Notes: generated from the letters alone by a model not told the origin. Shown: positions 2,244 to 32,000, counted from the stretch's first letter. The stretch: 32,000 nucleotides of DNA from Haloquadratum walsbyi C23 (GCF_000237865.1 NC_017459.1:1590001-1622000), one strand, 5' to 3'. A program made the numbers and translations.

Positions 2244-2444
2244 ATGATTGGAAAACTAGTCGATATCGTTCGCGGGGCACTCACGATGTGGGGTAACGAC
2301 GATCCTCCTGTAGAGACACCTAATTATGGGCAATCTGTCACATATACACCGTGTCGAGTTTGTGACGAGGGTCGACTGGAATATCACTCAGAGACAAATG
2401 CTGATGTCTGCCAAACGTGTGGTGCGACATTTCCGCGGTCGTGA
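2244..2444 (+). CDS. small zinc-ribbon protein
   Basis: 66 aa with two CxxC pairs (CRVCDEG ... CQTCG). A GGAG lies a few nt upstream of the ATG. Confidence 0.5.
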   Translation: MIGKLVDIVRGALTMWGNDDPPVETPNYGQSVTYTPCRVCDEGRLEYHSETNADVCQTCGATFPRS

Positions 2445-2455
2445 CATCCTCGCCC

Positions 2456-2465
2456 GTTATAAACG
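2456..2465. repeat. Target-site duplication, left copy (GTTATAAACG)
   Basis: Identical 10-mer at 4127-4136, directly abutting both IS ends. The true duplication may be 9 bp, as for Tn5. Confidence 0.8.
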
Positions 2466-4126
2466 CTGTCTCTTACCCATAACTCAATACTAGAGGGTAA
2501 TTTCGACCAAATCAGGCATGAAAAGAAGAAATCAATCAAATTTCCATCAGTATCTGCCCAAGATTAGAGAAGTATCCATGAAGCCGCTTGGAAAGCTCAG
2601 CTGAACTCGTTATTTCGGCGGGTTCTGCTGAATGAGCCGCGAAGCGCGCTCATTCAGTACCGAGTTCGTATCCTTCAGCCCACATGCGTAGCTTCTGGAG
2701 TCCTTTCCACATCGTCTTCCACCCTGGTGGCGGATCTGAACCACGATCAAGATAACCGCCGAGTTTAGCCACGCTCACTGCGTATGATTTCCCATCTTGA
2801 CCGCTCAATTCTGGAAATTTCGTTTCCAGAATTGTGCGCTCTGCCTCACTCAGCAGGACCGCCGGAGATACTGAACTATCATCACGAGCAAGTTCTCGTA
2901 GCTCCAGAACTTTCCACGCGATCACTGAATACATGCTCAACAACACTTCCATCCGCTCCCAAGTCTGCAGTTGCCGTTCTTCGATGTTACAGCCACTCTT
3001 GAGCACTTTATGCCAGTCTTCAATTCGCCAGCGGAGACCGTAATAGTCGATGAGTGTCAGCGTTTCCTCAAACTCTTCGACCGATTCAGTGGTGAGCAAC
3101 ACCCACTGAATCGGGTCGTCATTTTCACCGACCTCGTCAACTCTCACGACATTCACCTCGATTGAACCCTCTTGTTCAGGATTATTCTTTGGCGCGCGCA
3201 ACTCACACGTTCCAGTGGCTATCGACAACTCCGCTGTTCTCGCTTCGCGCCCACCTCCCTGTTGAATCTCGATTGTTTTGCGACCTTGCTCGGCAAGGTC
3301 GCTGCTCCAGTCAAAGAGTTTTCCAGGTTCACCATCATCAGTCCAAATCCGTCGGTTTTGACTCGCTCGGATGATGAAGCCAGCATTTTCCATCTCTCTG
3401 GTGACTCCCTCGTAGAACGCGAATGAATCTGCGCCTCGGTCATGGATAAATAGCGGGCGGATATCGTCGGCAAGCCAGTCTCTGGCTTGCCTGTCGCCAC
3501 GGCTCCATTTCTCATGTTCACTGTCAAGTTGAATCGGCTCTGCTTTGCCGTTGGCATCGTACTTCTCATCGGCCTGCTGGTCCTCGATCAGCGGCTGCTG
3601 ATCGATGACCCCAGTCATTCGATGGGTCCGTGGATTGATTCCGATCGTGGAGTGAAGCTTGATACCTTCGAGATCCATTTCAGAGTTGCCAATATCGCCG
3701 AGACCCTCCTTGGAGGGGTGTCTCGGAAACACGAGTTCGGTGGTATCGGAGACAATCAGGAGTTCGTCTGACCGACTCACTCTTGATTGCTGTTGCTGCT
3801 TGTGAGCAGAGAGAACCTCGTTGGGATCCACACTCTCATTATCGCAAAATCGGTATGTAGCTTTTGTGGACGCCCAGTCTCCGCAGGCAGCAGGGATGGA
3901 CTCGGCAGGTGAGCTGCCGAGTTCATCCCCAAGTTGTACTAGTCGGTCACTCAGGCGCTTGTCTCCAAACTCGGCTGATCGAAACTCCGTTTGAATCCAT
4001 CCTGAAACATCCATGTCACACAGCTGCCCATCTTCATCGAGTTCTGGCTTCCAACTCCGTGAGCGACGCCCCATCTACCAATCTTGGTTCGTCTACTCTT
4101 GTATTACACTTGTGGGTAAGAGACAG
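2466..4126 (-). mobile_element. Complete IS4-family (Tn5/IS50-like) insertion sequence, about 1.66 kb
   Basis: Imperfect terminal inverted repeats: CTGTCTCTTACCCATAACTCAATAC (2466-2490) against the reverse complement of 4101-4126 (CTGTCTCTTACCCACAAGTGTAATAC). The 14 outermost bp are identical and resemble the Tn5 end CTGTCTCTT. There is a single transposase ORF, and the element is flanked by the direct repeat GTTATAAACG. Confidence 0.85.
2650..4074 (-). CDS. IS4-family DDE transposase (Tn5-like)
   Basis: The N-terminus (FGDKRLSDRLVQLGDEL...KATYRFCDNESV) resembles the Tn5 Tnp DNA-binding region. DDE context: LLIVSDTTEL, FIHDRGADSF. Y-(2)-R-(3)-E-(6)-K signature: YYGLRWRIEDWHKVLKSG. Confidence 0.85.
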   Translation of the reverse strand: MGRRSRSWKPELDEDGQLCDMDVSGWIQTEFRSAEFGDKRLSDRLVQLGDELGSSPAESIPAACGDWASTKATYRFCDNESVDPNEVLSAHKQQQQSRVSRSDELLIVSDTTELVFPRHPSKEGLGDIGNSEMDLEGIKLHSTIGINPRTHRMTGVIDQQPLIEDQQADEKYDANGKAEPIQLDSEHEKWSRGDRQARDWLADDIRPLFIHDRGADSFAFYEGVTREMENAGFIIRASQNRRIWTDDGEPGKLFDWSSDLAEQGRKTIEIQQGGGREARTAELSIATGTCELRAPKNNPEQEGSIEVNVVRVDEVGENDDPIQWVLLTTESVEEFEETLTLIDYYGLRWRIEDWHKVLKSGCNIEERQLQTWERMEVLLSMYSVIAWKVLELRELARDDSSVSPAVLLSEAERTILETKFPELSGQDGKSYAVSVAKLGGYLDRGSDPPPGWKTMWKGLQKLRMWAEGYELGTE

Positions 4127-4136
4127 GTTATAAACG
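4127..4136. repeat. Target-site duplication, right copy (GTTATAAACG)
   Basis: Identical to 2456-2465. Confidence 0.8.
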
Positions 4137-4184
4137 GCGGGATTCTCTCGCTGATTAAAGATAGGTATTGCCTTGACACTCAGA

Positions 4185-4517
4185 TTATCCCTTCTTGAAT
4201 CCAGCGAGAAATCCACCGGTAAACCCAACCGAGACTGAAAGCGTCGAGAGAATTGTTGAGATCCATCCGGGCGGCGTGCCGTCAGCCGCGCTTTGTGTCG
4301 TTTCAGCAAGCCCAGCAGTCAGCCGACTCCAATCAACAAAGATGATATCTCGTGATTCGAGAAATTTGAATATTGCAAGTTCAATCCCAACGAGTAGTGC
4401 AATCAGCTTTGCAACCTTTTTAGCCGCAAATCCAATTACTGCCCCAATGACCGCTCCGCTACCAAATTCAATCCCAAGTTGTGTTGGATCCAGTGATAGC
4501 TGCAGTAAGTCGACCAT
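4185..4517 (-). CDS. small membrane protein, FUN14-like
   Basis: 110 aa with Gly-rich TM segments (GSGAVIGAVIGFAAKKVAKLIALLVGIELAIF ... VGFTGGFLAGFKKG). The family call is from pattern recognition only. Confidence 0.5.
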   Translation of the reverse strand: MVDLLQLSLDPTQLGIEFGSGAVIGAVIGFAAKKVAKLIALLVGIELAIFKFLESRDIIFVDWSRLTAGLAETTQSAADGTPPGWISTILSTLSVSVGFTGGFLAGFKKG

Positions 4518-4839
4518 GCTACGTTTCTACTGTTTGCGGATAAATCATTTGTGTAATGATACAATTAAACTCACCCCAGGGCAGTCGACTCGATCGCCTG
4601 CACATCGACTCAGATAATAACTGTTGTACTTGTATAATGTATATCTGTGCCAGCAGGGCTGATAGTGTTCAAGTATCTTGACGTTCTATTCATGATGAAA
4701 CAGTGCAGGAATCAAATATACATTGGCGGAAACCGCATAACACAGGTTGCATAGCACGGAAGATGTATGCTGGGACCGCCTTTACTGCAATCACTGTTCG
4801 AGGTCATATCGCACAGACAGAAGGGATTGAGGTGAGATT

Positions 4840-6525
4840 ATGACGATATCTCCAGTCATTGTTGCACAACGAGTCGACCCCAACGCAGTCGCAGACTTAA
4901 GCGAAATTGCTGATCTCGCTAGAGCGGCTGGATATGATGTGAGCAATACCCTTACACAATCGCGGGAAGAGGATGCAGCATATCACTTTGGCGAGGGAAA
5001 GATAGAAGCACTCGCGAGATTGGTCAAGCAAACCGACGCAGAGGCAGTTATCGTTGACAATCGCCTTGGACCATATCAGACATATAACATTGGGGGGAAA
5101 CTCCCGACCGGAGTTGAAGTTATTGACCGGTTTACGCTTATTTTAGAGATTTTCGGGCAACGGGCGAACACCCGAAAGGCACAACTCCAAGTTGAACTCG
5201 CTGAACTACGATATGAATTGCCACGAGTGGAGGCAAAATCATCGCTCGCAAAACGTGATGAACGACCAGGGTTCATGGGACTTGGTGAGTATGATGAAAG
5301 TCGCGAGCGGGATATTAAAGCGCAAATTTCACGAATCAGTCAAGAACTAGATGCAATTGCTGAAAAAGAGCAAACACGTCGTGAACAGCGTCGTGAGTCT
5401 GGCTTCGACCTTGTTGCCCTTGCAGGATATACGAATGCAGGGAAGTCAACATTACTTCGCCGACTTGCGGATGATCTTGATATTACCGAGAATAAAAATC
5501 GACATCCAGATCTCGAGCAGACGGCTGAGTCTGAGGATCGATTGTTCACCACACTTGGAACGACAACACGGCGAGCCGATACCGGACGGCGAGATGTACT
5601 ACTGACCGACACCGTTGGGTTTGTCTCCGATCTCCCACATTGGCTTGTTGAATCGTTTGAGTCAACACTCGACTCAGTGTACCGAGCCGATCTTGTCTTA
5701 CTTGTGGTTGATGCCTCAGAGTCAATTGATGCAATGCGTGAGAAGCTCATCACCAGCCATGATACGCTCTATGAGCGTAATGAAGCTCCAATTGTTACTG
5801 TCTTGAATAAAACCGACTGTGTTGAGGAAGGGGAACTTGATCGGAAGATGCAATCGCTTGATGCGCTAGCACCGAATCCGGTCGCTGTTTCAGGGCTTAC
5901 TGGTGAAAATATTGAGCAGTTGACGAATCGAATCGAGAATGAACTCCCGTCATGGCACGACGAGCGGCTGCTTCTGCCGTTGTCGGACGATGCAATGAGC
6001 CTCGTTTCATGGTTATATAATCACGGTCATGTCGAAAATGAAGAATACACTGATACCGGCGATGCAGTGCTTATCGAGTTCTCTGCTCGATCAACGATTG
6101 TTAAGCGAGCACGCGCGAAAGCAGCCGAACTTGAGGAGTCCCCATCAAAAGGAGCGTCAGATGAAAGTGCAAACACACACGATTCAAACGGAGTGAATAC
6201 CAAAACACAAGCACAACTGAGTGAGCGCAGACATGACAATGAAATAATGGAATCAGAGTCAAACCCGGAGCGAATGGACACAGCAAGTGACCGTGAGTCG
6301 ACATCGTATGAGGAGTCTGATACTACCCACCAAGTTGCTTCAGATAGTCCTCCTGATCGCATGTCAGACTCGACTCGCGAGATTCACCATAATAATCCGT
6401 CACAGGTCACTGAGGATGATGTCACTCAGGAAGATCATATAGACGCAGTAGATATCGATGTGAATTACCCGCTCATGAGTGAAAAGAATTCATCCGATAC
6501 TGACACGAATTCTAAAGCTGAGTAG
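4840..6525 (+). CDS. hflX: GTPase HflX with an acidic/Ser-Thr-rich C-terminal extension of about 140 aa
   Basis: HflX N-domain (RKAQLQVELAELRYELPR). G1 GYTNAGKST, G3 DTVGF, G4 NKTD. The low-complexity tail starts at about nt 6112. Confidence 0.85.
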   Translation: MTISPVIVAQRVDPNAVADLSEIADLARAAGYDVSNTLTQSREEDAAYHFGEGKIEALARLVKQTDAEAVIVDNRLGPYQTYNIGGKLPTGVEVIDRFTLILEIFGQRANTRKAQLQVELAELRYELPRVEAKSSLAKRDERPGFMGLGEYDESRERDIKAQISRISQELDAIAEKEQTRREQRRESGFDLVALAGYTNAGKSTLLRRLADDLDITENKNRHPDLEQTAESEDRLFTTLGTTTRRADTGRRDVLLTDTVGFVSDLPHWLVESFESTLDSVYRADLVLLVVDASESIDAMREKLITSHDTLYERNEAPIVTVLNKTDCVEEGELDRKMQSLDALAPNPVAVSGLTGENIEQLTNRIENELPSWHDERLLLPLSDDAMSLVSWLYNHGHVENEEYTDTGDAVLIEFSARSTIVKRARAKAAELEESPSKGASDESANTHDSNGVNTKTQAQLSERRHDNEIMESESNPERMDTASDRESTSYEESDTTHQVASDSPPDRMSDSTREIHHNNPSQVTEDDVTQEDHIDAVDIDVNYPLMSEKNSSDTDTNSKAE

Positions 6526-6554
6526 GGGTATATTCTCTCTTCTCGTTTGTCATT

Positions 6555-7094
6555 CTACGTTTCACTTTGTTTTTGTTTATTTACAACCTCGATATTGGTG
6601 ATTGCTGTTTTAGGATATTGCCCTGCGTCATCTTTCTCAGCAGCTTTTACCATATCCCAAATAACATTTAATCCTGTTGTCACACCCTCAAGTGCTTCCA
6701 TTTCACACCCGGTTTTACCAGTTGTCTCAACGGTGACACGTAGCTCAACTGCAGTCTCATGCAGATCAAATACCGTGTCGACATTTGTAATTGGGATTTG
6801 ATGACACATTGGGATGGTCTCCCATGTATGTTTGACTGCCTGTATAGCACCGATCCGTGCAGTCGCAAGGACATCGCCCTTTCCAATTTCATTGTCGCGG
6901 ACCGCATCAACTGTTGTTTGTGTGAGTTCGATCTCCCCACGAGCGCTGGCCCGTCGATTTGTGTCCGGTTTCGCTCCGACATCAACCATCTGTGCATCAC
7001 CGTCAGCATTGACATGCGTCAATTCTGTATCAGGGCTTTGATTTTCATTATCAGAGTGTTTGGTGTCTGTTTGTGTATTAATATCCTCAGTCAT
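6555..7094 (-). CDS. moaC: cyclic pyranopterin monophosphate synthase MoaC
   Basis: MVDVGAKPDTNRRASARGEI...IPMCHQIPIT...TGKTGCEMEALEGV, typical of the MoaC core. Overlaps the stop of the upstream gene by 8 nt. Confidence 0.85.
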   Translation of the reverse strand: MTEDINTQTDTKHSDNENQSPDTELTHVNADGDAQMVDVGAKPDTNRRASARGEIELTQTTVDAVRDNEIGKGDVLATARIGAIQAVKHTWETIPMCHQIPITNVDTVFDLHETAVELRVTVETTGKTGCEMEALEGVTTGLNVIWDMVKAAEKDDAGQYPKTAITNIEVVNKQKQSET

Positions 7095-8592
7095 CTGAGC
7101 TCACCCCTGCTGTCACATCTTTTGGATCCTGTAATGCAGTTGGTATTGTCTCTAAAAGATCCGTTGCAAGCAGCCCATTTCCGCGCTTCTCAACGGTGAT
7201 ATCGCCAGCCCGACCGTTAGCGTATGCACCGACGGTTGCTGCTTGAATCGGGCTAAGAACGCATGCAAGTGCGCCAACGACACCTGCGAGGATATCGCCT
7301 GTACCACCGACTGTCATTCCTGGATTTCCAGTTCGATTTATTCGGGTTGTTTCGCCATTACTAATGATATCAATTGCTCCTTTGACAAGTAATGTATGAC
7401 TATCAGAAAGTTCTGAGATGAATGCTGACATTTTCTTTGCTCGATGCTCCCAGTCATCCGCTGTTTCACCCCCCATTGCCTCTAATTCGCCTTGATGTGG
7501 TGTGCAGATTATCTCACCAGCAGGGTCAACCGTCGGAACAACCGACAGTGCATCAGCATCGACAACGACCGTTCCAGTGTGCCCGCGGAGAAACGAAGCA
7601 ACGACTGATAGTGTTTTTTCATCATCACCAAGCCCTGGACCAAGTACCGTGACATCATGATCCGCCGCAAGTGACTGCACATGTTCAAGCGCAGTTGGTG
7701 TAAGTCGTTCTCCAGGATATGCCCTAACGATTAGGCTCTCACTGTAACTTTGTATTTCATCAGCGATTGCCACTGGGCATGCAATACGAACCAAATCAGC
7801 GCCAGCCCGTAGTGCTGCTTGTGCACTCAATGCGGGAGCACCAGTGTATGGTCCACCACCGATGATAAGCACCTCACCGAAGTCACCCTTATGACTTTGT
7901 GTAGGGCGTGAAAGCGAATACAGATCACCAGGTCCAGCAGTCTGCTCGGCTGCCTGTGGAATACCGATATCTGCGACTGTTACACCTGCATCAATCGCCG
8001 TGAGTCCTGGTTTTTGATCATGAAATGTAACGACATGATTTGGCTCAACCGCAACACCTGTGGATGAACCTGTATCAGCATTGACCCCTGAGGGCACATC
8101 AACTGATAAAACGGTCGCATCAGTATGATTGATCTGGCTGGCTGCTGTTGCCTCAGGTTCGCGAAGAGCACCGGTGACTCCCGTCCCAAGCATTGCATCA
8201 ACGACAATGTCTGGTGATTCGCCATTTGGTCCGACGATTTCGATACTCGATGTATCTTGAACAACTGTTGTGTCGTACCCACCCTTCATGAGTGCCTCCC
8301 AATTTTGCTTTGCGGTTGATGTTCGGATTGTCTCTGGACGCCCTAATAACAAAACACTCACAATATACTCATCAAGGAATCGAGCGGTAACAAAGCCATC
8401 ACCACCATTGTTTCCACGTCCTGCAACAATAACAGCGACTGGTGGTGTCTCTGATTCAACGTCTACATCAGTCAGCTCCCGCACTGTCTTCGCAACAGCG
8501 TTACCACCTGATTCCATGAGCTGTTGTGGAGAGACCCCCAGTGCCTCAGCGTTACGATCCACAGCTGCCATGCGTGCACTTGTGATCATCAT
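7087..8592 (-). CDS. nnr: bifunctional NAD(P)H-hydrate repair enzyme (epimerase / ADP-dependent dehydratase)
   Basis: YjeF-N motif GRGNNGGDG and a C-terminal carbohydrate-kinase motif GGTGDILAG. The start is taken at MMITSARM; the ORF track extends to 8625. Confidence 0.85.
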   Translation of the reverse strand: MMITSARMAAVDRNAEALGVSPQQLMESGGNAVAKTVRELTDVDVESETPPVAVIVAGRGNNGGDGFVTARFLDEYIVSVLLLGRPETIRTSTAKQNWEALMKGGYDTTVVQDTSSIEIVGPNGESPDIVVDAMLGTGVTGALREPEATAASQINHTDATVLSVDVPSGVNADTGSSTGVAVEPNHVVTFHDQKPGLTAIDAGVTVADIGIPQAAEQTAGPGDLYSLSRPTQSHKGDFGEVLIIGGGPYTGAPALSAQAALRAGADLVRIACPVAIADEIQSYSESLIVRAYPGERLTPTALEHVQSLAADHDVTVLGPGLGDDEKTLSVVASFLRGHTGTVVVDADALSVVPTVDPAGEIICTPHQGELEAMGGETADDWEHRAKKMSAFISELSDSHTLLVKGAIDIISNGETTRINRTGNPGMTVGGTGDILAGVVGALACVLSPIQAATVGAYANGRAGDITVEKRGNGLLATDLLETIPTALQDPKDVTAGVSSDD

Positions 8593-23117: not shown

Positions 23118-24779
23118 TCATGATTCCTCTCGGGTCAGTTCACGGACAACAGCGATAATCTCCGCTGGAGGGACTGTCGAATTAACACGCACAAGTGCTT
23201 GATTCGCATCTCCAACCCATCCATCCTGCATTTGATTTATTTCATCATCACCCGTATCACCTGCATTAGCGCCATCGTCGACATCATCAGATTCCGCTGG
23301 TGTGGTTGTTGAATCCATCTGACTGACAGCGTTATTCTCCGCAGGAATATCAGTTGTCTCTATATCAATGTTGGTCCTGAGTGCCTCCGCGACCACAACT
23401 GCATCAACAGTAGTTGATGTTGACTGCGTATCCCGTGTTGGTTGTGTGGCAACTGCGACAACCTCCTCACCAATTGCAAGCACAAGAGACTCAGGTGTCT
23501 GATATCTTGACGCAAGCTCTGCGACTGTCAATAACCGCCCCGGGGTCGATATATCGCCTACCGAACTGTCTGTCTCTGTTTTCCCGGATTCAGTAGTGCT
23601 ACTCATCTCATCAGGACCCGAGGTGGTTGATGAGTCTTGGAACTCATCATGGTCACGGCATCGAAGGAGATAGACACCGTCATATCGCCCTGTATGTGCA
23701 GTTTGGAGTATGTGATGAACAGCTCGTGCATGTTCACGCCAAGCGCTGAGTACTGCATCACTTGCATCATGACTGATTGCGAATGCAATAGCAGTTCCCG
23801 GGCGCTCGCGTGAAACTGCACGCAGAACGTCTGCGTATCCTTCAATTGTTGTCATCGGACCATCTGGTAGATACTGCGGATGAAGAGCCTGCTCAAGAGA
23901 TATTGCAGTTCCAACTGTCGGCGTCGATGCCTTGATTACATCAATCGTGACCGCAGAAGCAATCGTCCGCTGATCCTCATCTGAGAGATTTATTAATGAT
24001 ACCGCATCAGTGAATTCACCTTGATCATCACCTTCACTACTATGAGCATCAATGTCAACGTCAAGATCAATCTCAGCCATCATCGCTTGAGTTGCATCAA
24101 CATCTCCGCTGAATGATGCATGCATTAATGTCGAGTGAGCAAGACCATCAACAACATTGCTAATAGGGATCCCGACTCCTGGTTGCTGGTCAACTGAGAC
24201 AGTGTCTGTTGTTGTCAGTGTTTCAAGTAGTGATGTAGCGAACCCACTATCATCCGTTGTTTGTGATTGTGCCTGCGTTTGCTCTTGATTATTACTCGCT
24301 GACTTCGTTTCGAGTGAAACGCCGGTTGTAATGATACCAGCAAGTGCAAGTAGTGTATCAGTCGGTGGAATGGTAATATTCACATCTTCTCCACTCACGT
24401 CATCGGTCGTATCTACTCCGGACTCAGATGCGTGCGTTGGCGTAGTGAGTGCCTCAGTGACTGCATAAACACTGCGTGTCACCGATCGTTCGACCGGATT
24501 AATATTGATATCTGCTGCTGGATGCGATAATCCAAGTGCAATACAGCAACCATCATCCTGGTCGGTAACCGTTGGATTAGCGTGCCCAAACTGATCAGCG
24601 CGAATTTGAAACGGAGTGCTCTCCCGACGAAGTGCGCGCGCAAGGAGTCCTGCTGCCGCAATTGCATCACCATTACTCCGACAAATAACACGAACAAATG
24701 CTGTATCTGTAAGTGTCGTTGCGACGCTCTCAGCAGAGCCATCTATTGTCGGCATCTCAGAGCGTGTTGATATTGTCAT
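23118..24779 (-). CDS. RecJ/DHH-superfamily-like protein, highly diverged with low-complexity inserts
   Basis: The N-terminal VRVICRSNGDAIAAAGLLARAL resembles DHH motif I/II with the acidic residues partly replaced. It lies in the conserved archaeal neighbourhood rps15-recJ-like-rps3ae. The start is taken at MTISTRSE; the ORF track extends to 24890. Confidence 0.4.
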   Translation of the reverse strand: MTISTRSEMPTIDGSAESVATTLTDTAFVRVICRSNGDAIAAAGLLARALRRESTPFQIRADQFGHANPTVTDQDDGCCIALGLSHPAADININPVERSVTRSVYAVTEALTTPTHASESGVDTTDDVSGEDVNITIPPTDTLLALAGIITTGVSLETKSASNNQEQTQAQSQTTDDSGFATSLLETLTTTDTVSVDQQPGVGIPISNVVDGLAHSTLMHASFSGDVDATQAMMAEIDLDVDIDAHSSEGDDQGEFTDAVSLINLSDEDQRTIASAVTIDVIKASTPTVGTAISLEQALHPQYLPDGPMTTIEGYADVLRAVSRERPGTAIAFAISHDASDAVLSAWREHARAVHHILQTAHTGRYDGVYLLRCRDHDEFQDSSTTSGPDEMSSTTESGKTETDSSVGDISTPGRLLTVAELASRYQTPESLVLAIGEEVVAVATQPTRDTQSTSTTVDAVVVAEALRTNIDIETTDIPAENNAVSQMDSTTTPAESDDVDDGANAGDTGDDEINQMQDGWVGDANQALVRVNSTVPPAEIIAVVRELTREES

Positions 24780-24959
24780 CGTCGGTATACGTTGAGTTGA
24801 GTCGATTAGCAGTCTCTCAGAGCTAAAACTCTGACATGGTGATGATATCAGCGTAATTACTGTCTGTCCCTGGTATCCTGTGATGAACACACAGCAATCA
24901 TGCGCTGAGAAATCATATGATCAATCTGGGTCATATATTTTTGAGCTTGGGTTTTCTGT

Positions 24960-25436
24960 CTATGCCTCTTCCGCCTCAAGTAATTCGACAGCGACTTCAA
25001 AGCTGTAGGTGAAGTCCTCATCAAGTTCGTCGCCACGATAGTATGAAGCGAGACGACGGATTTTCGACTCAGTATTTTGAAGTGCACGCTTATTCTGCAT
25101 GTCCTGTCCGTTTTCATCGACATGTCGTCTGAGTCGAATTGCGCGCTCCATGAGATTTCGAAGATCTTCAGGAAGCTCCGGCTTTGCGTTATGCTCCTCA
25201 AGGATTGTCGTTACTTTCTTATCAGTCGCAAGTTTGACATCTGGAATCGGAGTTCCTTTGACGCCTTCATCTCGAAGTTTCATCCCGATTTGACTTGGTT
25301 CATGTCCTTGCTCCGCAAGTTCGACAACGCGTTCTTCAATTGCGTCAGCATCAATATCGCTCCACTCTGGGGGGTCATCTGCCACCGGCTTGTCCGAACC
25401 GGACGAACCGCGGCGGCGGGTGTGCATTCGTGCCAT
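24960..25436 (-). CDS. rps15: 30S ribosomal protein S15 (uS15)
   Basis: MARMHTRRRGSSGSDKP... plus C-terminal RLRRHV...NKRALQNTESKIRRLASYY. Confidence 0.9.
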   Translation of the reverse strand: MARMHTRRRGSSGSDKPVADDPPEWSDIDADAIEERVVELAEQGHEPSQIGMKLRDEGVKGTPIPDVKLATDKKVTTILEEHNAKPELPEDLRNLMERAIRLRRHVDENGQDMQNKRALQNTESKIRRLASYYRGDELDEDFTYSFEVAVELLEAEEA

Positions 25437-25720
25437 TGGTGTATCAATCTAAATTGGTCAATATACGTTGATTGGAACGGCACAGACCGCAGAAAAGCGG
25501 TGAAGTAAGAGACGAGTATCAGATACGGCTCTTGTGTCACACTTCCGCAATCCCAAGCCGTCTAGAGACGGCAAGTCAGATTTGCGGCCGTGCTGTTCCC
25601 AACTAAATTATCGGTTGAGTGTATAAAAAACATTGCGACTGACAGATACCGATGATATTGGTACTGATATATGAGTCGAAGGGCTTAATATTACAATTGA
25701 AATAATATATCGTACAATGT

Positions 25721-25792
25721 GGGCTCGTAGATCAGGGGTAGATCACTCCCTTGGCATGGGAGAGGCCCCGGGTTCAAATCCCGGCGAGTCCA
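25721..25792 (+). tRNA. tRNA-Ala (anticodon GGC)
   Basis: Cloverleaf folded by hand: acceptor GGGCTCG/CGAGTCC with G3:U70, D arm GATC/GATC, anticodon arm CTCCC-TTGGCAT-GGGAG, 5-nt variable loop, T arm CCGGG-TTCAAAT-CCCGG, discriminator A. CCA is not encoded. Confidence 0.9.
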
Positions 25793-26004
25793 TACCGCTC
25801 CTTCGTCGCGGTGGATTGACCAGACGGCGCGGGGGTCGTTATAAAGAACCCCCCTTATTTACCCCCCATTTCTGCTGTTTTTCAAACGGTCCTGAGAGGG
25901 CAAAACTCAATCCAAAGTATTCCGTCGCGGTACACCACCCCTACACGTACCCCGGTTACACCCAGTGAGTTTCTTTTATTGACATATAATTCTATTCATT
26001 CCGG

Positions 26005-27803
26005 CTAACAAAACGACGCCAACCCCTTCTGACTCATACCATTCACCGCACACTGAACATCAATCTCAATCGCCGCAAGCACACTGTCAAGAGGACGAAT
26101 AACCGCGCCCTCTATCATGCGATCAACGTCAACGATAAACTCACCATCGTAACTCGCAATCTCATCAACAGTATTGAATCCGATCACGTCGATGTTCCGA
26201 TTCATCTCATCGGAGTACTGATTGTCGAGATACACTCGCATTGGTTTATCGCCTGATCCAATATTTGTGTCAAGCATATGGTTTGCGTTCCACGCCGCTC
26301 GTGGGTGTGCCCCCTGTGGATGATTGCCGCTGGAAGACCAGTTGTAATAATCATCGTTGTCGGCGTGCTCTTGACTAATCTTCTTTCCAAGCCCGCCGGG
26401 GATGCCGATGGAACCCCAATCTTCACTGCTGAGTCCGGGGTAATAACGTTCGATGCGGCTTCCACGATACTTACTATTTTATTTTCGCTTTTCCCGTCAA
26501 GAATGGCTTCTATGACCTTCTTCTGCGTGTTTTGAGTCAATTCTGAAAAGTCAGACCGCTTAGATCCATAGCCGACTATCTTCCGTTCGGGATTGTCACT
26601 AATGTCGTCGCCCTCGTCCCAATGACACAGATATGCGTACCGTTTCTTCTTGCCTGATTGGAAGAACCGCTTGATGTAGTTCTCGCGCTCGATCAACCAC
26701 TCGTTGTCTTCGACCGGAACATTGTACTGCTCGTTGACGAAGCGGGGATACACCTCATTGCTCAACGTGTCGCATACTTCTTTGGCACGTCGCAAGCATT
26801 TCTCCATGCTCCAGTCGTCAGACCACTTAATGTAATTACTGTCAGTGTCACCGTACAATACTTCGCCTTCGGTTTCTTCTTCGACGTACTGTGCAGTCCG
26901 TTTGATACATTTCCGACCTAAGACGGTGATTGCTTCTGCTACATCTTTGTCGTATAGGAAGAAGTGTTCCCATCCGAGCACTCCGTAGATTGAGTTAGTG
27001 ATAGTTTTGGCAACGGCGTACCGTTCACCCCACGTTGCAACTGCTTCTCGATCACCACGGTCACCAGCGTCGTTTTTCTTGTCACGGTAACTTTCTTTGA
27101 GGTCAATGGCTTCGTCAATTAGCTCTCGAAAGATGCCGTCTTCTCGTCGGTCAAAGTAGATTCCGTTTGGACTTTTATTGTGCGAGAAGCCCGGCGTGGT
27201 TGGACTCTCTATCTTTTTCTCGGGCGAGATATTGAACATCTTCATCGCCATTGGATACAATGACTTCACATCAATTCCTGTGACATTCTCGTAGACACCG
27301 TTGGCTGGTTCAAAGACGTGCCCGCCGCCGAAGTCCTCCTTGCCTTGGAAGTGCTTAGTTGGTCCGTGCAGTCCTTCTTCGTGTAACTTGCACCGAACGA
27401 ACATCTCGATGAATTGGTTGTTTTGTCGAGTCAGGTCAAAGTCAACGCCGACCTCCTCACGGAGAGCGTTCTTGAACCCGATAACTCCCGCCTCTTTGTT
27501 AATGCCGACTGTCAATAGCGTGTCTTTTGCATTGTAGTTGAGAAACTTGATTGGGTTTTCTTGCCACATTTCGTGGTAACCCATGTCACTGTGTTCTATT
27601 TTGGCGTCGTCCAGCTCAACTTGTGCTACGGCGTCGAGACGGTATGATTGAAGCTCGCTGCGTTTGGTGTCTTTGTATGCGCTCAAGAGGTCGTACACAG
27701 TCCGTCCACCGAACTCTTGAACATCTGCCCATCCACTCCCTGATAACTTCACACTGCCGTCTTTACGCGCCATACGGTCGGTACTGACACCAAGTTGTTC
27801 CAT
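26005..27803 (-). pseudogene. polB: family-B DNA polymerase, N-terminally truncated and frameshifted
   Basis: Exo III LNYNAKDTLL, motif A GIDVKSLYPMAM, motif B KTITNSIYGVLG, motif C LYGDTDS. Exo I/II are absent, and an in-frame stop at 27825-27827 lies 7 codons upstream of the first Met. A reading-frame change near the G4/C4 run at 26437-26440 joins the 533-aa ORF to the 26005-26277 ORF. By hand, the alternative frame reads ...PGLSSEDWGSIGIPGGLGKKISQEHADNDDYYNWSSSGNHPQGAHPRAAWNANHMLDTNIGSGDKPMRVYL.... Confidence 0.75.
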
Positions 27804-27866
27804 GCGACCGAGGAGCCATATGACTTATATTTTTAAAACAGTGACACGAATCTTGCAATATATCGC

Positions 27867-29282
27867 ATGGCATCAAGATATCTTGGGGTTTTTAATAGAT
27901 ATGATCTTTTTGGGAAATCAATCCCTGGCGCGACGCTCACAGCCGGAATTATTCTGATATCACCGAATGATAATTTACCTACCCAATATGGTAACAATCC
28001 CACATTAATCGAGCTGGTGGCTCTGATTGCTGCTGCTCTGGCTATCGGATTATTAATTGGTGAAGCAATCCATATGTTCGCTCGAGTAACTGAAAGATTT
28101 CTCCTAAATGTCGGACGACGGCTGATTAAGTTTGGACGAAAACTAAAAGATAGTGTCTTATCTCTCACTGGATCATTAAAGATCTTAGAACTTAAACTAA
28201 AGCCTAATTATGACTTCAACACTGATGATCTGGATAAAAAAGTTGGAGACAATGAGCGACCTGGCTCAATGGATCACCCGGACGCTGAAGAGGTAGCTAA
28301 ACTAATTCAATCTGATTCAGTAAGTAGTGACTCAGATAGCGAAAAAGGGGATAAACCAATTCGAATTGATTCAGTAAGTAGTGACTTAGATATCGAAAAA
28401 GGGGATAAACTGGTTCCAGATGATTCAGTAAGTAGTGACTCAGATAGCGAAAAAGGGGATAAACTGGTTCCAGATGATTCAGTAAGTAGTGACTCAGATA
28501 GCGAAAAAGGGAATAAACTGGTTCCAGATGATTCAGTAAGTAGTGACCCAGATGAAGACAAAACGGCTAATCAGGAGGAAGTGGGACTTATAAATGTGTT
28601 AGAACATCCATCAAATATATTGCGTTTACAACCAGGAATCTACAAGTCGATTCCGGAAATAATGGTTCAGATTCTTCAATGGGTATCGTATGTAATAGTC
28701 AATGTTATTACCATACCGTTGCGGAAGATACTCAATACAACTGTTTGGTTCAGTGGTTGGGTAGTCGACAAGCTATATCCCGTGTTCCAACGACATCGTG
28801 TATTATTTCAGGTATGGATTAGTTCAAACTACGATTATACATATCCAGAACACTTGGATCGCTGGGAGCCATCTGATCCGGTTTTAGCAAGAAAACTTGA
28901 CGAACAATGTAGTGAAATACATGATATCAAGCTAAAACAACGCGAAAGCCCTCCTGACGAATCTTTCTACACCTTCGTGGCGGCAAATGTCGGGCAGAAT
29001 TCTGAGACTCTTTCACAACGGTTTCAAAATCTCTATTCTTTCTGCCGAAGCATGTGGGTGGTGTTTTCAATTATATTAATCATTTACACGTTGTCAATAT
29101 ATTTAGCAATTATCGACACAGACTCTTCTCGTTACATATTAATTTCCTCTATTCTTTTTGTTTTAATTCTTCTTTTTTTGACTTCTACAGGAACATATAA
29201 AAAATTATATATAAAATATCTTATCTCCGAAATGTCAGTGCTCGAAAAATATGAAACATCCACAACTGAAACTGATCAGTAA
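27867..29282 (+). CDS. multi-TM protein of unknown family with an internal acidic tandem-repeat linker
   Basis: 471 aa. N-terminal TM pair (ATLTAGIILI, LIELVALIAAALAIGLLIGEAI), central hydrophobic segments (VQILQWVSYVIVNVITIPL, VWFSGWVV), and a C-terminal TM pair (MWVVFSIILIIYTLSIYLAII, ILISSILFVLILLFLTS). AT-rich codon usage unlike the core genes. Confidence 0.65.
   Translation: MASRYLGVFNRYDLFGKSIPGATLTAGIILISPNDNLPTQYGNNPTLIELVALIAAALAIGLLIGEAIHMFARVTERFLLNVGRRLIKFGRKLKDSVLSLTGSLKILELKLKPNYDFNTDDLDKKVGDNERPGSMDHPDAEEVAKLIQSDSVSSDSDSEKGDKPIRIDSVSSDLDIEKGDKLVPDDSVSSDSDSEKGDKLVPDDSVSSDSDSEKGNKLVPDDSVSSDPDEDKTANQEEVGLINVLEHPSNILRLQPGIYKSIPEIMVQILQWVSYVIVNVITIPLRKILNTTVWFSGWVVDKLYPVFQRHRVLFQVWISSNYDYTYPEHLDRWEPSDPVLARKLDEQCSEIHDIKLKQRESPPDESFYTFVAANVGQNSETLSQRFQNLYSFCRSMWVVFSIILIIYTLSIYLAIIDTDSSRYILISSILFVLILLFLTSTGTYKKLYIKYLISEMSVLEKYETSTTETDQ
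28314..28559 (+). repeat. 4.5 tandem copies of a 54-bp in-frame repeat (18 aa, DSVSSDSDSEKGDKLVPD)
   Basis: Repeat units start at 28314, 28368, 28422, 28476 and 28530. Units 3 and 4 differ by a single nucleotide. Confidence 0.9.
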
Positions 29283-29328
29283 TCTGCATGCGCATAATTT
29301 ACATATAACCGTATCATTTATCTTATTC

Positions 29329-29895
29329 ATGTCGTTGGGGCAGACTAAAACTCTCGATAATATCAAGATCTTCATCAATAGAGCGGATGGTCCAGTCTCT
29401 GCAATTGAATTACAAAAAATTATGTTCTTTGCAGATATTCATGCCACCGAAGAATTTGCAGCACGTGTTACGGAAGCGAAGTTTAAACCGATGATGTATG
29501 GTCCGTATTCACCTGACATCCGGGAAGCACTCGATCATCTCATTGAAAAGAACCCGGAGCCGCTTATAATACGGTCTCAAACGCGGAATGGTAATAGTGA
29601 AAAAATATTTAATTATGCCAATCTTTCAGACACCGATCGAACAAACCAAAAACGTGTTAGTTACATTAACCATATAATGAACGTGATTAATATTCTTGAG
29701 TGGGGCGTAGACGAATTAAGTGAATTTTGCAAGAACTCCTCTGCTTATCAAATGGCAATATCAGATGATAAAGAGTATGTTTCATTTAGCGATTATCGCG
29801 ATAAAATTGAAGATGATGAACAACCAGATATCGGCGTCTACAATCGCAATAATCACAGTGAAGATAGTCCTCCTGAGTGGGCATTCGAACTATAG
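29329..29895 (+). CDS. Panacea/DUF4065 (PanA, SocA/GepA-like) domain protein, putative antitoxin
   Basis: AIELQKIMFFADIHATEEFAARVTEAKFKPMMYGPYSPDIREALDHL fits the DUF4065 core pattern (KLQKLLYfa ... F.a...GPv.P.vY). The ATG at 29329 lies 46 nt after the stop of the co-oriented upstream gene; the ORF track starts at 29251. Confidence 0.55.
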   Translation: MSLGQTKTLDNIKIFINRADGPVSAIELQKIMFFADIHATEEFAARVTEAKFKPMMYGPYSPDIREALDHLIEKNPEPLIIRSQTRNGNSEKIFNYANLSDTDRTNQKRVSYINHIMNVINILEWGVDELSEFCKNSSAYQMAISDDKEYVSFSDYRDKIEDDEQPDIGVYNRNNHSEDSPPEWAFEL

Positions 29896-32000
29896 AGGTA
29901 GATATCTTCTTGCCACGTTTCGTTCTCCTGCTCCGGCTTTCTCAGGGCACGTTTTTCCGAACCAGCGGCAGTGCTGGTCATATCGCTCATCAGATATCAC
30001 GCTTCCTAACTTAATTTTGTGTCATCTGCGGTATTATGGAAAAGATATCCATGACTATTCCAGACTCGCTTGTAATAAATTAGCAATAATCGTGGATATT
30101 TCTCGGAGGCGTTATTCGCAATGTAGAAAACAAATATAGGTGATACTGTGCGCGTACTATGTGGAGAAGGCGATTTTGTCTTGGATCCTTGTCAGCTGAC
30201 TAAACTTTTTATTAACTGAGCTTATAGCTATCACCACTGGGTGTGTATCCGTCTCCAGAGATGTTTCTGAACTCGCTTGAGATGCATTCAGCCATCTCTT
30301 GATCACTGTGATTATTCTTTTTTGAGTCCCTTCCGTCCCCATAGCCAGCCCAGCTTTTCACCAAATGAATCCTTGCTTAGATACTCATAATATTCTTGAT
30401 CATCTCTTTGATCGACACCATATTCACTTTCCCAGTAAGGAATCGGCAGTTGACATTTCATACCATCGGTAGTGGTAATATGAAATAAAACAATTTTATG
30501 GCTAACTCAATAGTCAACATTCAGAAAAACATGAATTCCGAACACTCTGTCATCTCAACCACGATTTTCCATAATCATAGTGAAATGACTATGAGCAATA
30601 TATAATTGATCTCAATCAATTTCATCAGTGTCATCACCGCGAAAAACTGTCACACAAACAAATAAACGCTCTTTCTGTCACATGCCCAACGTCAGTCATC
30701 AACTTGCTGTCGTAATTTACAAATGAAATTGTGAACGCATCCTCTTGTCCTGATCGTGCTTCCAGTTGGTCGGTTTCCTGCGGAACTAAGCCAGATCTGA
30801 ACATTGAACAAGATATAATTGTATTCTTTTCAGGCTGAGAACGACGGGAAGCGCCGGCATCCTTGTGACAATATGATTGAGCAAGTTATTGTTCAACACG
30901 GCGATGTCCCTGATCCCAGTGATATTGAACAACTCATTTTCAATCTCATTGGTGGGGACTCAATATTGTGTTGATAATGAATTATTATAAATAATATTGT
31001 ATATATTATACATTATTGTGAAGTCAATGTTGACCGACAAAGTCAGTTATCTTGAATTGATAAAAAGCTATCTTGACTTATCAGAACCCACAAGATTGAC
31101 CGGTCGGAACAAAGTTAATGTCAGTTGCTTCTGAATCACAGTTGTGCTATTCTTACTTATTTTTGGACGAACGTAATATTCTGTATTCCGACATCGATTT
31201 ATTTCGTCTCATAACTGGACATTTGGTCATTTTAGATTAGAACTAAAGCGTGATTTACTCAGACGAGAATTTAATTCAGACACTGATCATATGATTCTTA
31301 TTCTGAGATACCTATCAATGCAAATCACACAAACTCCTGGGAGGACGGTGACGACATTTCGGGAACGACTTAATGAATGCCGTCAACCGACTCAAAAAAC
31401 TTCATAGAAGCGTTTTCTTGAATCCTTCAGACGGTTCCTTGTAGTGCATGTGATCGTAAGAATGAGTCTGGTTTCGTTCGGGAAGGCTCGGTTCTTGTAT
31501 GTATTATCGTCTTTTTTCGTTAGCTCGTGAGCAGGCTGTGGAGCCTGTCAGAAGGTTTTATTTTCATATATGCTACGGTTCATCTTTCATGAGAGAACGC
31601 TATCAGACACATCTGTTGGATCTCTCAGGTGGTCGCTTGTCTTTTACTGAATGTGACTGTGACAATCATTTCTGGTTTCGTCCGGGAAGCGGGCGCATCT
31701 TGTCTTTCTGTACCAGTGAATTGTGTGTGTATCAATTATACCATTGGTAATAATTGTTGAAAGTATATTATTAAAAGTATGCGGTTGCGGGTGGCGGTAG
31801 TTGTGCTGTTACTGTAGTGGATGCGTCTTCCCCCTTCCTGAACGTAAACAGTAATAAAGACAGCAACGCGGTAAAGACAACAGTATAATTAACAGCAGTA
31901 CTATTATAATAACTGTGCACAGTAACTGGGTACAATAAGGTAGGGTGGTAAGTCAATGTCCAGTAGTAATTGACTCAGCAAAAGTCAATAACGAATGGTA

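Follow-up and report, generated by a model that had tools for sequence, protein, structure and literature searches.

Introduction

PanAT toxin-antitoxin (TA) systems, as defined by Kurata et al. 2022, are built around PanA, a Panacea-domain antitoxin that neutralises many unrelated toxins by direct binding, including validated membrane-depolarising ones (PMC8832971). Dataset S1 of that study contains both gene orders, toxin before antitoxin and antitoxin before toxin, and many of the transmembrane (TM) toxins predicted in this Panacea census are small peptides (PMC8832971). The cytoplasmic region ahead of a toxin's TM helix can serve as a contact site for a stand-alone Panacea domain, and a role in sensing is the one that Ernits et al. 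2023 prefer for the domain (PMC10440598). Here, we describe two adjacent genes, A and B, of the haloarchaeon Haloquadratum walsbyi C23, of which A encodes a predicted membrane protein and B a Panacea-domain protein. They are located in a stretch of 32,000 nucleotides (GCF_000237865.1, NC_017459.1:1590001-1622000), hereafter called the window, and all positions are counted from its first letter. Our analysis supports this two-gene module as a PanAT-like candidate, where support refers to candidate status only.

B is listed in the same census as a PanA (WP_077260071.1, strain C23) labelled 'no_PanT', and the four haloarchaeal PanAs neighbouring it carry this label as well (Kurata et al. 2022, Dataset S1; PMC8832971). 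In the NetFlax 2023 supplements, we found none of the haloarchaeal genus names that were searched for, nor the PanA accession. Full-text literature searches returned no description of the A-B pairing, and no experimentally characterised archaeal Panacea pair was found in the literature.

Two further descriptions are relevant to this locus. H. walsbyi C23 carries a strain-specific, virus-like insertion of 19.7 kb, DV7, in a transfer RNA (tRNA) gene, tRNA-Ala, with a frameshifted HF1-like DNA polymerase (Hqrw_2609) at the tRNA end and an integrase together with a 22-nucleotide (nt) duplication of the tRNA at the far end (Dyall-Smith et al. 2011; PMC3119063). Csx27 is an accessory protein of type VI-B1 CRISPR-Cas, and repression of Cas13b interference by it has been reported (Smargon et al., bioRxiv 10.1101/092577); a passage in PMC7642515 assigns it four TM regions and a predicted channel function.

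Results

Genes A and B form a conserved pair in haloarchaea

Open reading frame (ORF) A spans 27867-29282 on the plus strand (471 amino acids (aa), ATG start) and is followed on the same strand by ORF B (29329-29895, 188 aa) after an AT-rich spacer of 46 nt (29283-29328), which confirms the co-oriented arrangement reported in an earlier, sequence-only reading of this DNA. A first search with A returned four distant relatives with 26-31% identity, and on every contig with downstream DNA a Panacea gene came next on the same strand. Using a five-sequence profile against 1.84 billion cluster representatives, we recovered 254 proteins at E ≤ 1e-3 and 76 at E ≤ 1e-30. When near-identical loci were counted once, A was followed by a Panacea gene on the same strand in 29 of the 33 distinct loci with readable downstream DNA, and the synteny across haloarchaea that the sequence-only reading had proposed to look for was thus present.

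This gene order spans at least six genera with unrelated flanks. Within named haloarchaeal genomes, obtained from a scan of one genome per GTDB species, A is immediately followed by a co-oriented B homologue in all seven loci (Haloferax sp. S1W, Hfx. denitrificans, Halorubrum californiense, Halorientalis brevis, Haloarchaeobius iranensis, Salinigranum sp. and a Haloferacaceae metagenome-assembled genome). No H. walsbyi locus was returned by the scan of GTDB species representatives, which is consistent with the published strain specificity. Scanning metagenomes, we found B downstream of A in 21/24 loci, and two of the three exceptions end at contig ends. Four more A-family members were checked one by one, and all of them, including long forms of 520 aa and 557 aa, have B downstream. 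Up to now, the A family has been traced only to Halobacteria.

The spacers between both genes are mostly 30-115 nt long, the extremes being -8 nt and 115 nt apart from a single spacer of 185 nt; their sequence is not conserved. According to an all-against-all BLASTP comparison of the neighbourhoods, A and B are the sole genes common to the loci. Likewise, no recurrent third family emerged when 115 flanking ORFs of 17 loci were compared with Pfam. None of the 25 commonest families matches more than two ORFs; the matches include Mrr (twice), D12 methylase (twice), N6_Mtase, SWI2/SNF2 and resolvase, among housekeeping genes. The pairwise divergences of A and B are significantly correlated (21 pairs, Mantel r = 0.79, reached in 0/5000 permutations), and among distant pairs the correlation is r = 0.60. 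The guanine-plus-cytosine (GC) content of the cassette is 40-46% compared with 52-59% for the whole locus in six of the named genomes, and 60% compared with 67.5% in the seventh, with individual flanking ORFs of these loci reaching up to 72%.

At one locus (L050), the 557-aa long-form A homologue lies between two Panacea-type genes, a weak-scoring one upstream (2329-2979, minus strand) and a B-family gene located 185 nt downstream (5074-5619, plus strand).

Gene B encodes a stand-alone Panacea protein

The product of 29329-29895 had been proposed to carry the Panacea (DUF4065) signature. This was verified by a significant match to Pfam PF13274 (SocA_Panacea; E = 1.4e-8, 36.0 bits), which exceeds the gathering cutoff of 25.7 and spans profile positions 1-110 of 113; the 188-aa form of B reaches 36.5 bits. 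The domain comprises residues 28-138 (29410-29742, plus strand) and is followed by an acidic tail. With 20 Lys and Arg against 33 Asp and Glu residues, B is acidic, and no other domain was recognised; the net charge of B averages -13 over 21 loci. PF13274 was also found at E ≤ 0.01 in 9/11 homologous downstream genes. Based on its sequence, B is predicted to be a soluble, acidic, stand-alone Panacea-domain (PanA-like) protein.

Matches to related antitoxin models were partial. B scores 21.9 bits against NCBIfam SocA_antitoxin (cutoff 190), likewise 21.9 bits against NCBIfam antitoxin_DarG (cutoff 250), and 24.4 bits against the PADLOC DarG model, in each case with the Panacea-like segment alone. 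In the DarG profile, the alignment covers positions 176-265 of 329, corresponding to the Panacea-like part, and the macrodomain is not evident. A profile search of B against PDB sequences returned no match.

An alternative ATG at 29251 would extend B to 214 aa and overlap A. We prefer the start at 29329, because the 188-aa start is the one called by the Joint Genome Institute (JGI) on identical metagenome contigs and because, in the homologue alignment, the 188-aa form has just a short lead ahead of the first conserved helix. The spacer contains TTACATATAA about 30-40 nt upstream of this ATG.

Panacea genes related to B are also found with other partners. On the Natrinema thermotolerans plasmid CP031304.1 (L046, 3896-5043), a DUF4065/Panacea gene overlaps an annotated RelE/ParE-family toxin gene by one base; its product is 34% identical to a B-family member, and the locus has the appearance of a canonical haloarchaeal PanAT pair. 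On a Halorussus plasmid, a related Panacea gene is paired with a 152-aa hypothetical protein. Based on these other partners, the habit of partner swapping extends to the B lineage. Upstream of the Panacea gene on the Halorussus caseinilyticus plasmid NZ_CP119811.1, an unannotated stretch (L045, 2800-3500) contains recurring peptide strings (VAVPRKPTPGLK, FNPGVGFLG) in several frames, a pattern suggestive of repeats interspersed in the DNA and possibly of a CRISPR array; no repeat was reported for this stretch by Tandem Repeats Finder.

Gene A belongs to a family of predicted membrane proteins

A is 100% identical to a hypothetical protein of H. walsbyi. It has no Pfam match, and searches of Pfam, NCBIfam and PADLOC gave no toxin match for it. 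Among 50 diverse A-family members, no common Pfam or NCBIfam family was found, each match being confined to a single member, and a search with the A-family profile found none among PDB sequences. The earlier designation of this partner as unclassifiable is not wholly right: A is part of a family of at least 254 clusters, of which other members, not the window protein, weakly resemble Csx27 (see below). A match of A to TraX (NCBIfam, E = 3e-6, 26.9 bits, cutoff 100) was absent in 49 relatives and was rejected as a probably compositional match of an AT-rich TM region.

Two conserved modules were identified. The N-terminal module (27867-28199, residues 1-111, plus strand) comprises an invariant YD-FGK-IPG motif, a weak TM1 (residues ~19-33), a strong TM2 (residues 47-72) containing G61xxxG65 and H69, with E76 just after it, and a basic helix following TM2. 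The C-terminal module (28638-29261, residues 258-465, plus strand) contains a predicted cytoplasmic helical domain (H310-R311, Y368), an FQxxYSFCRSMW motif, TM3 (residues 391-414, 29037-29108, plus strand), TM4 (residues 421-443, 29127-29195, plus strand) and a GTYKxxYxxYL tail. Hydropathy predicts the weak TM1, the strong TM2 and, further on, TM3 and TM4 in most family members, with extra TM helices in the long forms. Scored over 21 paired loci and 50 members and given in window numbering, the invariant or near-invariant residues are Y12, D13, K17, P20, G21, G61, G65, H69 and E76 in the N-terminal half, and H310, R311, Y368, Q387, Y390, F392, C393, R394, M396, W397, F437, G442, Y444, K445 and Y451 in the C-terminal half. 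Net charges over 21 orthologues (N-terminus +0.8, loop 1-2 -1.0, after TM2 +2.0, loop 3-4 -0.5) point, by the positive-inside rule, to a topology with both termini inside, which would place the N-terminal motif, the middle domain and the C-terminal tail in the cytoplasm. The middle domain (window residues 258-390, 21 loci) is charge-neutral, with about 16 Lys and Arg against 16 Asp and Glu residues. Such a neutral charge is unusually basic for a soluble haloarchaeal domain.

An AlphaFold2 (AF2) model computed with the five-sequence alignment was unusable (predicted local distance difference test (pLDDT) score 41), and the 50-sequence model was used instead. This model is all-helical, with a mean pLDDT of 74.7 and a predicted template-modelling score (pTM) of 0.68; pLDDT values are 80-94 over residues 11-111 and 82-97 over the C-terminal module. 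A Foldseek search with it gave nothing at E ≤ 0.001 in PDB or BFVD, the best template-modelling scores (TM-scores) being < 0.25. The structural check suggested by the sequence-only reading thus yielded no fold match, but it did yield a confident all-helical model. An ExbB/MotA/PomA fold, which recurred among the Foldseek rows, was discounted (probability ~0.1, TM-score < 0.25). N-terminal, central and C-terminal TM segments had initially been proposed for A; the first and the last were recovered, whereas the central, hydrophobic segment 265-285 falls in a stretch carried by the window protein alone in the five-sequence alignment and lies within one long helix (264-307) of the AF2 model. Based on this alignment and helix, it is probably not a TM helix of the family.

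The two modules are separated by a variable linker (residues ~112-257), in which most of 129-255 has a pLDDT < 50. It contains an in-frame tandem repeat (28313-28553, plus strand; 54-nt unit, 4.5 copies, Tandem Repeats Finder score 412, 93% matches) encoding acidic 18-aa DSVSSDSDSEKGDKLVPD units. The linker is not conserved among homologues, and the model suggests that the repeats form a disordered linker specific to the window protein. Accordingly, the picture of a large 471-aa partner with a repeat linker applies to the window protein but not to the family, in which most members have 300-370 aa and a minority 450-560 aa; the linker and probably the central segment are local additions. In environmental variants with 99% identity (L016 155-203, L017), a 51-nt in-frame insertion (PDTHDVIYALANPEIIP) was observed near 28635 in the linker, with both ORFs still intact; the contigs of these variants break within the 54-nt repeats. 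It appears that the linker tolerates in-frame length changes. Between the window and the 99% variant there are 15 differences, too few for an informative ratio of nonsynonymous to synonymous substitution rates (dN/dS).

At another locus (L042), a divergent A relative (ORFs 3401-4471, 4669-5238 and 6009-7355 listed) is found just upstream of an ORF resembling a terminase large subunit, as judged by sequence and not by a hidden Markov model. This suggests that some A-family members may be carried by haloviruses or proviruses.

The cassette is located in a defective provirus

The window carries the left end of DV7 as published, with tRNA-Ala(GGC) (25720-25793, plus strand; ARAGORN, Rfam 65.6 bits) as the integration site and the sole tRNA in the window. 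The accessory region recognised in the sequence-only reading matches this C23-specific defective prophage (PMC3119063). Its description as tRNA-flanked is correct for this tRNA, but the second, partial copy known from the literature lies outside the window. The broken polB beside the pair is a halovirus-type family B DNA polymerase pseudogene (26005-27803, minus strand; PF00136 E = 6.5e-30), published as Hqrw_2609 and divided by a frameshift into the minus-strand ORFs 26005-26277 and 26202-27803. The fragment covers positions 253-732 of 856 in phrog_262 and is 45-46% identical to Hafunaviridae polymerases. Since its first residue aligns at about residue 250 of the 827-aa HRTV-25 polB, around 249 N-terminal codons are missing in addition to the frameshift. 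The AT-rich segment bearing the cassette begins at this same position, which suggests that the cassette may be a secondary insertion or replacement within the decaying provirus.

From ~27.8 kb to the end of the window, the GC content is 37-40%, compared with 46-49% upstream, which agrees with the earlier observation that both genes are more AT-rich than their surroundings. The DNA of the module itself gave no phage match. A TATA-box-like element, TTATATTTTTAAAA (27825-27838, plus strand), is positioned 29-42 nt upstream of the A start codon and may represent the promoter of A, giving a short-leader or leaderless transcript; similar AT-rich elements occur 25-45 nt upstream of A in many homologous loci. 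The cassette, complete or in part, was also found at 99-100% identity in assemblies from six environmental samples.

Two independent JGI metagenome contigs with 100% identity to the window (L014, L015) both start exactly at 27722, 81 nt into the polB fragment. This shared start hints at a branch in the assembly graph, i.e. at population variation at that junction. A 17-nt direct repeat, TTCTTGCCAC(A/G)TTTCGT, is present at 27558-27574 within polB and, with one mismatch, at 29907-29923, 12 nt past the stop codon of B, and could be the trace of a recombination joint. We also considered a target-site duplication or a second polB fragment around the cassette and rejected both, as tblastn revealed no polB continuation downstream of the second copy; the repeat is probably a chance occurrence.

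Other features of the window

The ~2.1 kb downstream of the cassette (29896-32000) have 38-40% GC and no ORF above 139 aa on either strand. Neither a DNA match to the phage collection nor an Rfam family reaching the gathering threshold was found for them, and they could represent decayed provirus cargo or non-coding DNA. On the other side of the provirus end, an S15-Halobacteria ribosomal protein leader (Rfam RF03143, 78.3 bits; 25539-25602, minus strand) precedes the S15 gene (24960-25436, minus strand) and is an ordinary core-genome feature beside the prophage attachment tRNA. The ORF at 23118-24890 (minus strand) encodes a very acidic protein of 590 aa rich in Thr, Ser and Asp, without a Pfam match at E ≤ 1.

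Discussion

A proposed PanAT-like cassette with a membrane protein as candidate effector

The pair combines a known antitoxin domain with a large family of membrane partners that is structurally unmatched and was previously without assignment. With moderate confidence, we favour the reading that A-B is a PanAT-like cassette which moves horizontally as an autonomous unit, has the membrane protein A as its effector and here forms AT-rich cargo of a decaying HF1/Hafunaviridae-like provirus at tRNA-Ala. Sequence and model suggest that A has a four-helix TM core, cytoplasmic N- and C-termini and a middle domain of about 130 aa. The cytoplasm-facing parts contain the invariant polar residues H69, E76, H310-R311, C393-R394 and Y444-K445, and the charge distribution suggests that these conserved soluble parts would be within reach of B.

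It can be envisaged that B would bind the cytoplasmic face of A and hold it inactive. Upon a trigger, be it virus infection or loss of the element, B might be lost, degraded or altered, and the freed A would then compromise the membrane by ion leak or depolarisation. Membrane damage of this kind would lead to growth arrest, and the cassette would act as an addiction or abortive-infection device.

Several observations weigh against this reading. The spacers of 30-115 nt exceed the overlaps typical of type II TA operons, and A greatly exceeds the validated small membrane PanTs in size and in the elaborateness of its conservation. A protein with such invariant His, Glu, Cys and Arg residues and a domain of 130 aa could equally well be an enzyme, a channel or a regulated transporter. 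The flanks resemble defence loci only loosely, and the co-divergence of A and B, compatible with a complex, is also expected from plain co-inheritance and is no proof of contact. In addition, the four exceptions among the 33 loci, which are the most divergent A relatives, have no Panacea neighbour: three of them (L042, L051, L052) form a sub-branch with a different C-terminal motif, and the fourth, a compact protein of 246 aa, is encoded in a glycosyltransferase cluster on a Halarchaeum megaplasmid. The A fold is therefore not always in need of a Panacea partner. Finally, no A relative was found in 2.9 million IMG/VR viral contigs, nor was one detected by tblastn in 50,697 GenBank phage records.

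Resemblance to Csx27 and alternative explanations

The weak resemblance of the A family to Csx27 was assessed with three profiles. The PADLOC Csx27 profile PDLC01605 is matched at E ≤ 0.01 by 16/50 A-family members (13-23 bits; best E 2.5e-5, 22.8 bits), the type VI-B 'tm_4' profile by 3/50, and NCBIfam CAS_Csx27 (NF040557) by one of the 50 (E = 1.5e-5). In the matches to the PADLOC Csx27 profile, the matching stretch always comprises the pre-TM3 motif and TM3, at profile positions ~79-160 of 206. Reversed versions and versions shuffled in 15-residue windows of five matching proteins gave no Csx27 match at E ≤ 0.1; the resemblance therefore rests on residue order and not on composition. The window protein A showed no Csx27 match, and we treat the resemblance as a lead and not as family membership. 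In the wider Csx27 family, competence, ubiquitin-like or WYL genes are reportedly found as neighbours; among the 25 commonest Pfam families of the flanking ORFs described above, we found no Cas, competence, ubiquitin-system or WYL family. To our knowledge, no link between Csx27 and Panacea has been reported, and the mechanism of Csx27 is, we believe, still unknown.

Taken further, this lead would make A-B a Panacea-gated membrane effector from an archaeal, domain-expanded branch of the Csx27 superfamily. The cassette would then represent a novel abortive-infection or addiction system, widely distributed among haloarchaea and with proviruses and plasmids as its vehicles. We regard this extension as speculative and rather doubtful.

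The same resemblance gives rise to the main alternative explanation, according to which the pair is a regulated membrane device and no TA system at all. A would then represent a remote archaeal offshoot of the Csx27 superfamily of four-TM proteins, enlarged and of channel or transport type, B a cytoplasmic sensor or regulator, and the pair would perform a conditional, non-lethal job such as nucleic-acid exclusion, uptake or signalling. This is conceivable but unlikely. The matches to all three profiles fit such a device, those to the PADLOC Csx27 profile being consistent in position and lost in the reversed and shuffled controls, yet their scores are low and the window protein has none. The four-TM architecture is common to the A family and, following the cited passage of PMC7642515, to Csx27, whose channel function is itself just predicted. 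A sensory B would agree with the role favoured for Panacea by Ernits et al. 2023 (PMC10440598), and an A that can work by itself would agree with the solitary relatives; on the other hand, the flanks contain no cas13b or other consistent partner, and the patchy, AT-rich, mobile two-gene pattern is a classic mark of selfish or defence cassettes.

A second alternative places the pair in the service of the virus, with A as a membrane lesion or superinfection-exclusion (Sie) protein checked by the cytoplasmic inhibitor B, comparable to holin-antiholin or Sie functions. The location inside the published defective prophage beside a halovirus-type polB would be in line with this, and so would the terminase-like ORF adjoining the divergent A relative at L042 and a Prim-Pol gene near one of the long-form pairs (L049). 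Against these three instances stand the mostly non-viral genomic flanks, the module DNA without a phage match, and the appearance of the window cassette as a secondary arrival that truncated polB and not as part of a conserved viral gene order. We consider a lysis or exclusion function improbable, and less likely than a regulated device because no A relative was found in the viral collections, neither in the IMG/VR contigs nor in the GenBank phage records. A fortuitous adjacency of two unrelated accessory genes in C23, as the non-overlapping 46-nt spacer and possible separate promoters might suggest, is effectively refuted by the same order and strand in 29/33 distinct loci from at least six genera with unrelated flanks and by the significant co-divergence of A and B.

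Significance of the PanAT-like reading

TA and abortive-infection biology is poorly charted in archaea, and the A-B pair provides a module for Haloferax genetics. Haloarchaeal PanAs that had no partner in the 2022 census are now almost always found to be preceded by one family of membrane proteins. The A family would represent a new effector class, whose invariant polar residues are targets for mutagenesis, and the resemblance to Csx27 could tie a CRISPR accessory protein to TA-like membrane effectors. If the more speculative extension to a Csx27-related, Panacea-gated effector is true, A-B would count as one of the earliest Panacea-linked modules to be characterised from archaea. It would define a new, large class of membrane effectors resembling PanT, with a conserved His/Glu/His-Arg/Cys-Arg site where the membrane faces the cytoplasm. 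It would also offer a functional handle on Csx27, which might then be a latent membrane-active effector and not a mere repressor of Cas13b. Furthermore, a strain-specific cargo that recurs at 99-100% identity in environmental assemblies bears on virus-host dynamics in saltern populations.

Comparison with described systems

Compared with Csx27, the A family likewise has four predicted TM helices, and both occur in defence-related or mobile contexts. In contrast to Csx27, which is known from loci of Bacteroidetes, A loci are archaeal and have no cas13b nearby, their constant neighbour being Panacea. Moreover, A contains a large cytoplasmic insertion between TM2 and TM3 as well as N- and C-terminal motifs, and the scores of its family are far too low for a family assignment.

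With respect to SocAB, a type VI TA system, and DarTG, B aligns partly to the antitoxin models of both through its Panacea-like segment, whereas it scores far under the curated cutoffs and shows no full-length match. The A-B loci have no conserved third gene and thus no DarT- or SocB-like gene, and the partner A is a membrane protein without a family match. SocA is a ClpXP adaptor, and archaea are without ClpXP.

With respect to PanAT, A is found in none of the described PanT clusters that were checked, its family is characterised by 310-560 aa, four or more TM helices and a conserved cytoplasmic domain of 130 aa, and the pair, with its putative toxin, is archaeal and so far from Halobacteria only. 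As in PanAT, however, a stand-alone Panacea protein above the Pfam threshold is encoded in a co-oriented two-gene cassette that is kept across taxa while the flanks are unrelated, which corresponds to the FlaGs-type criterion by which PanAT pairs are called; the cassette bears a signature of horizontal transfer and is carried on a prophage, and A is a predicted membrane protein, like three of the validated PanT toxins.

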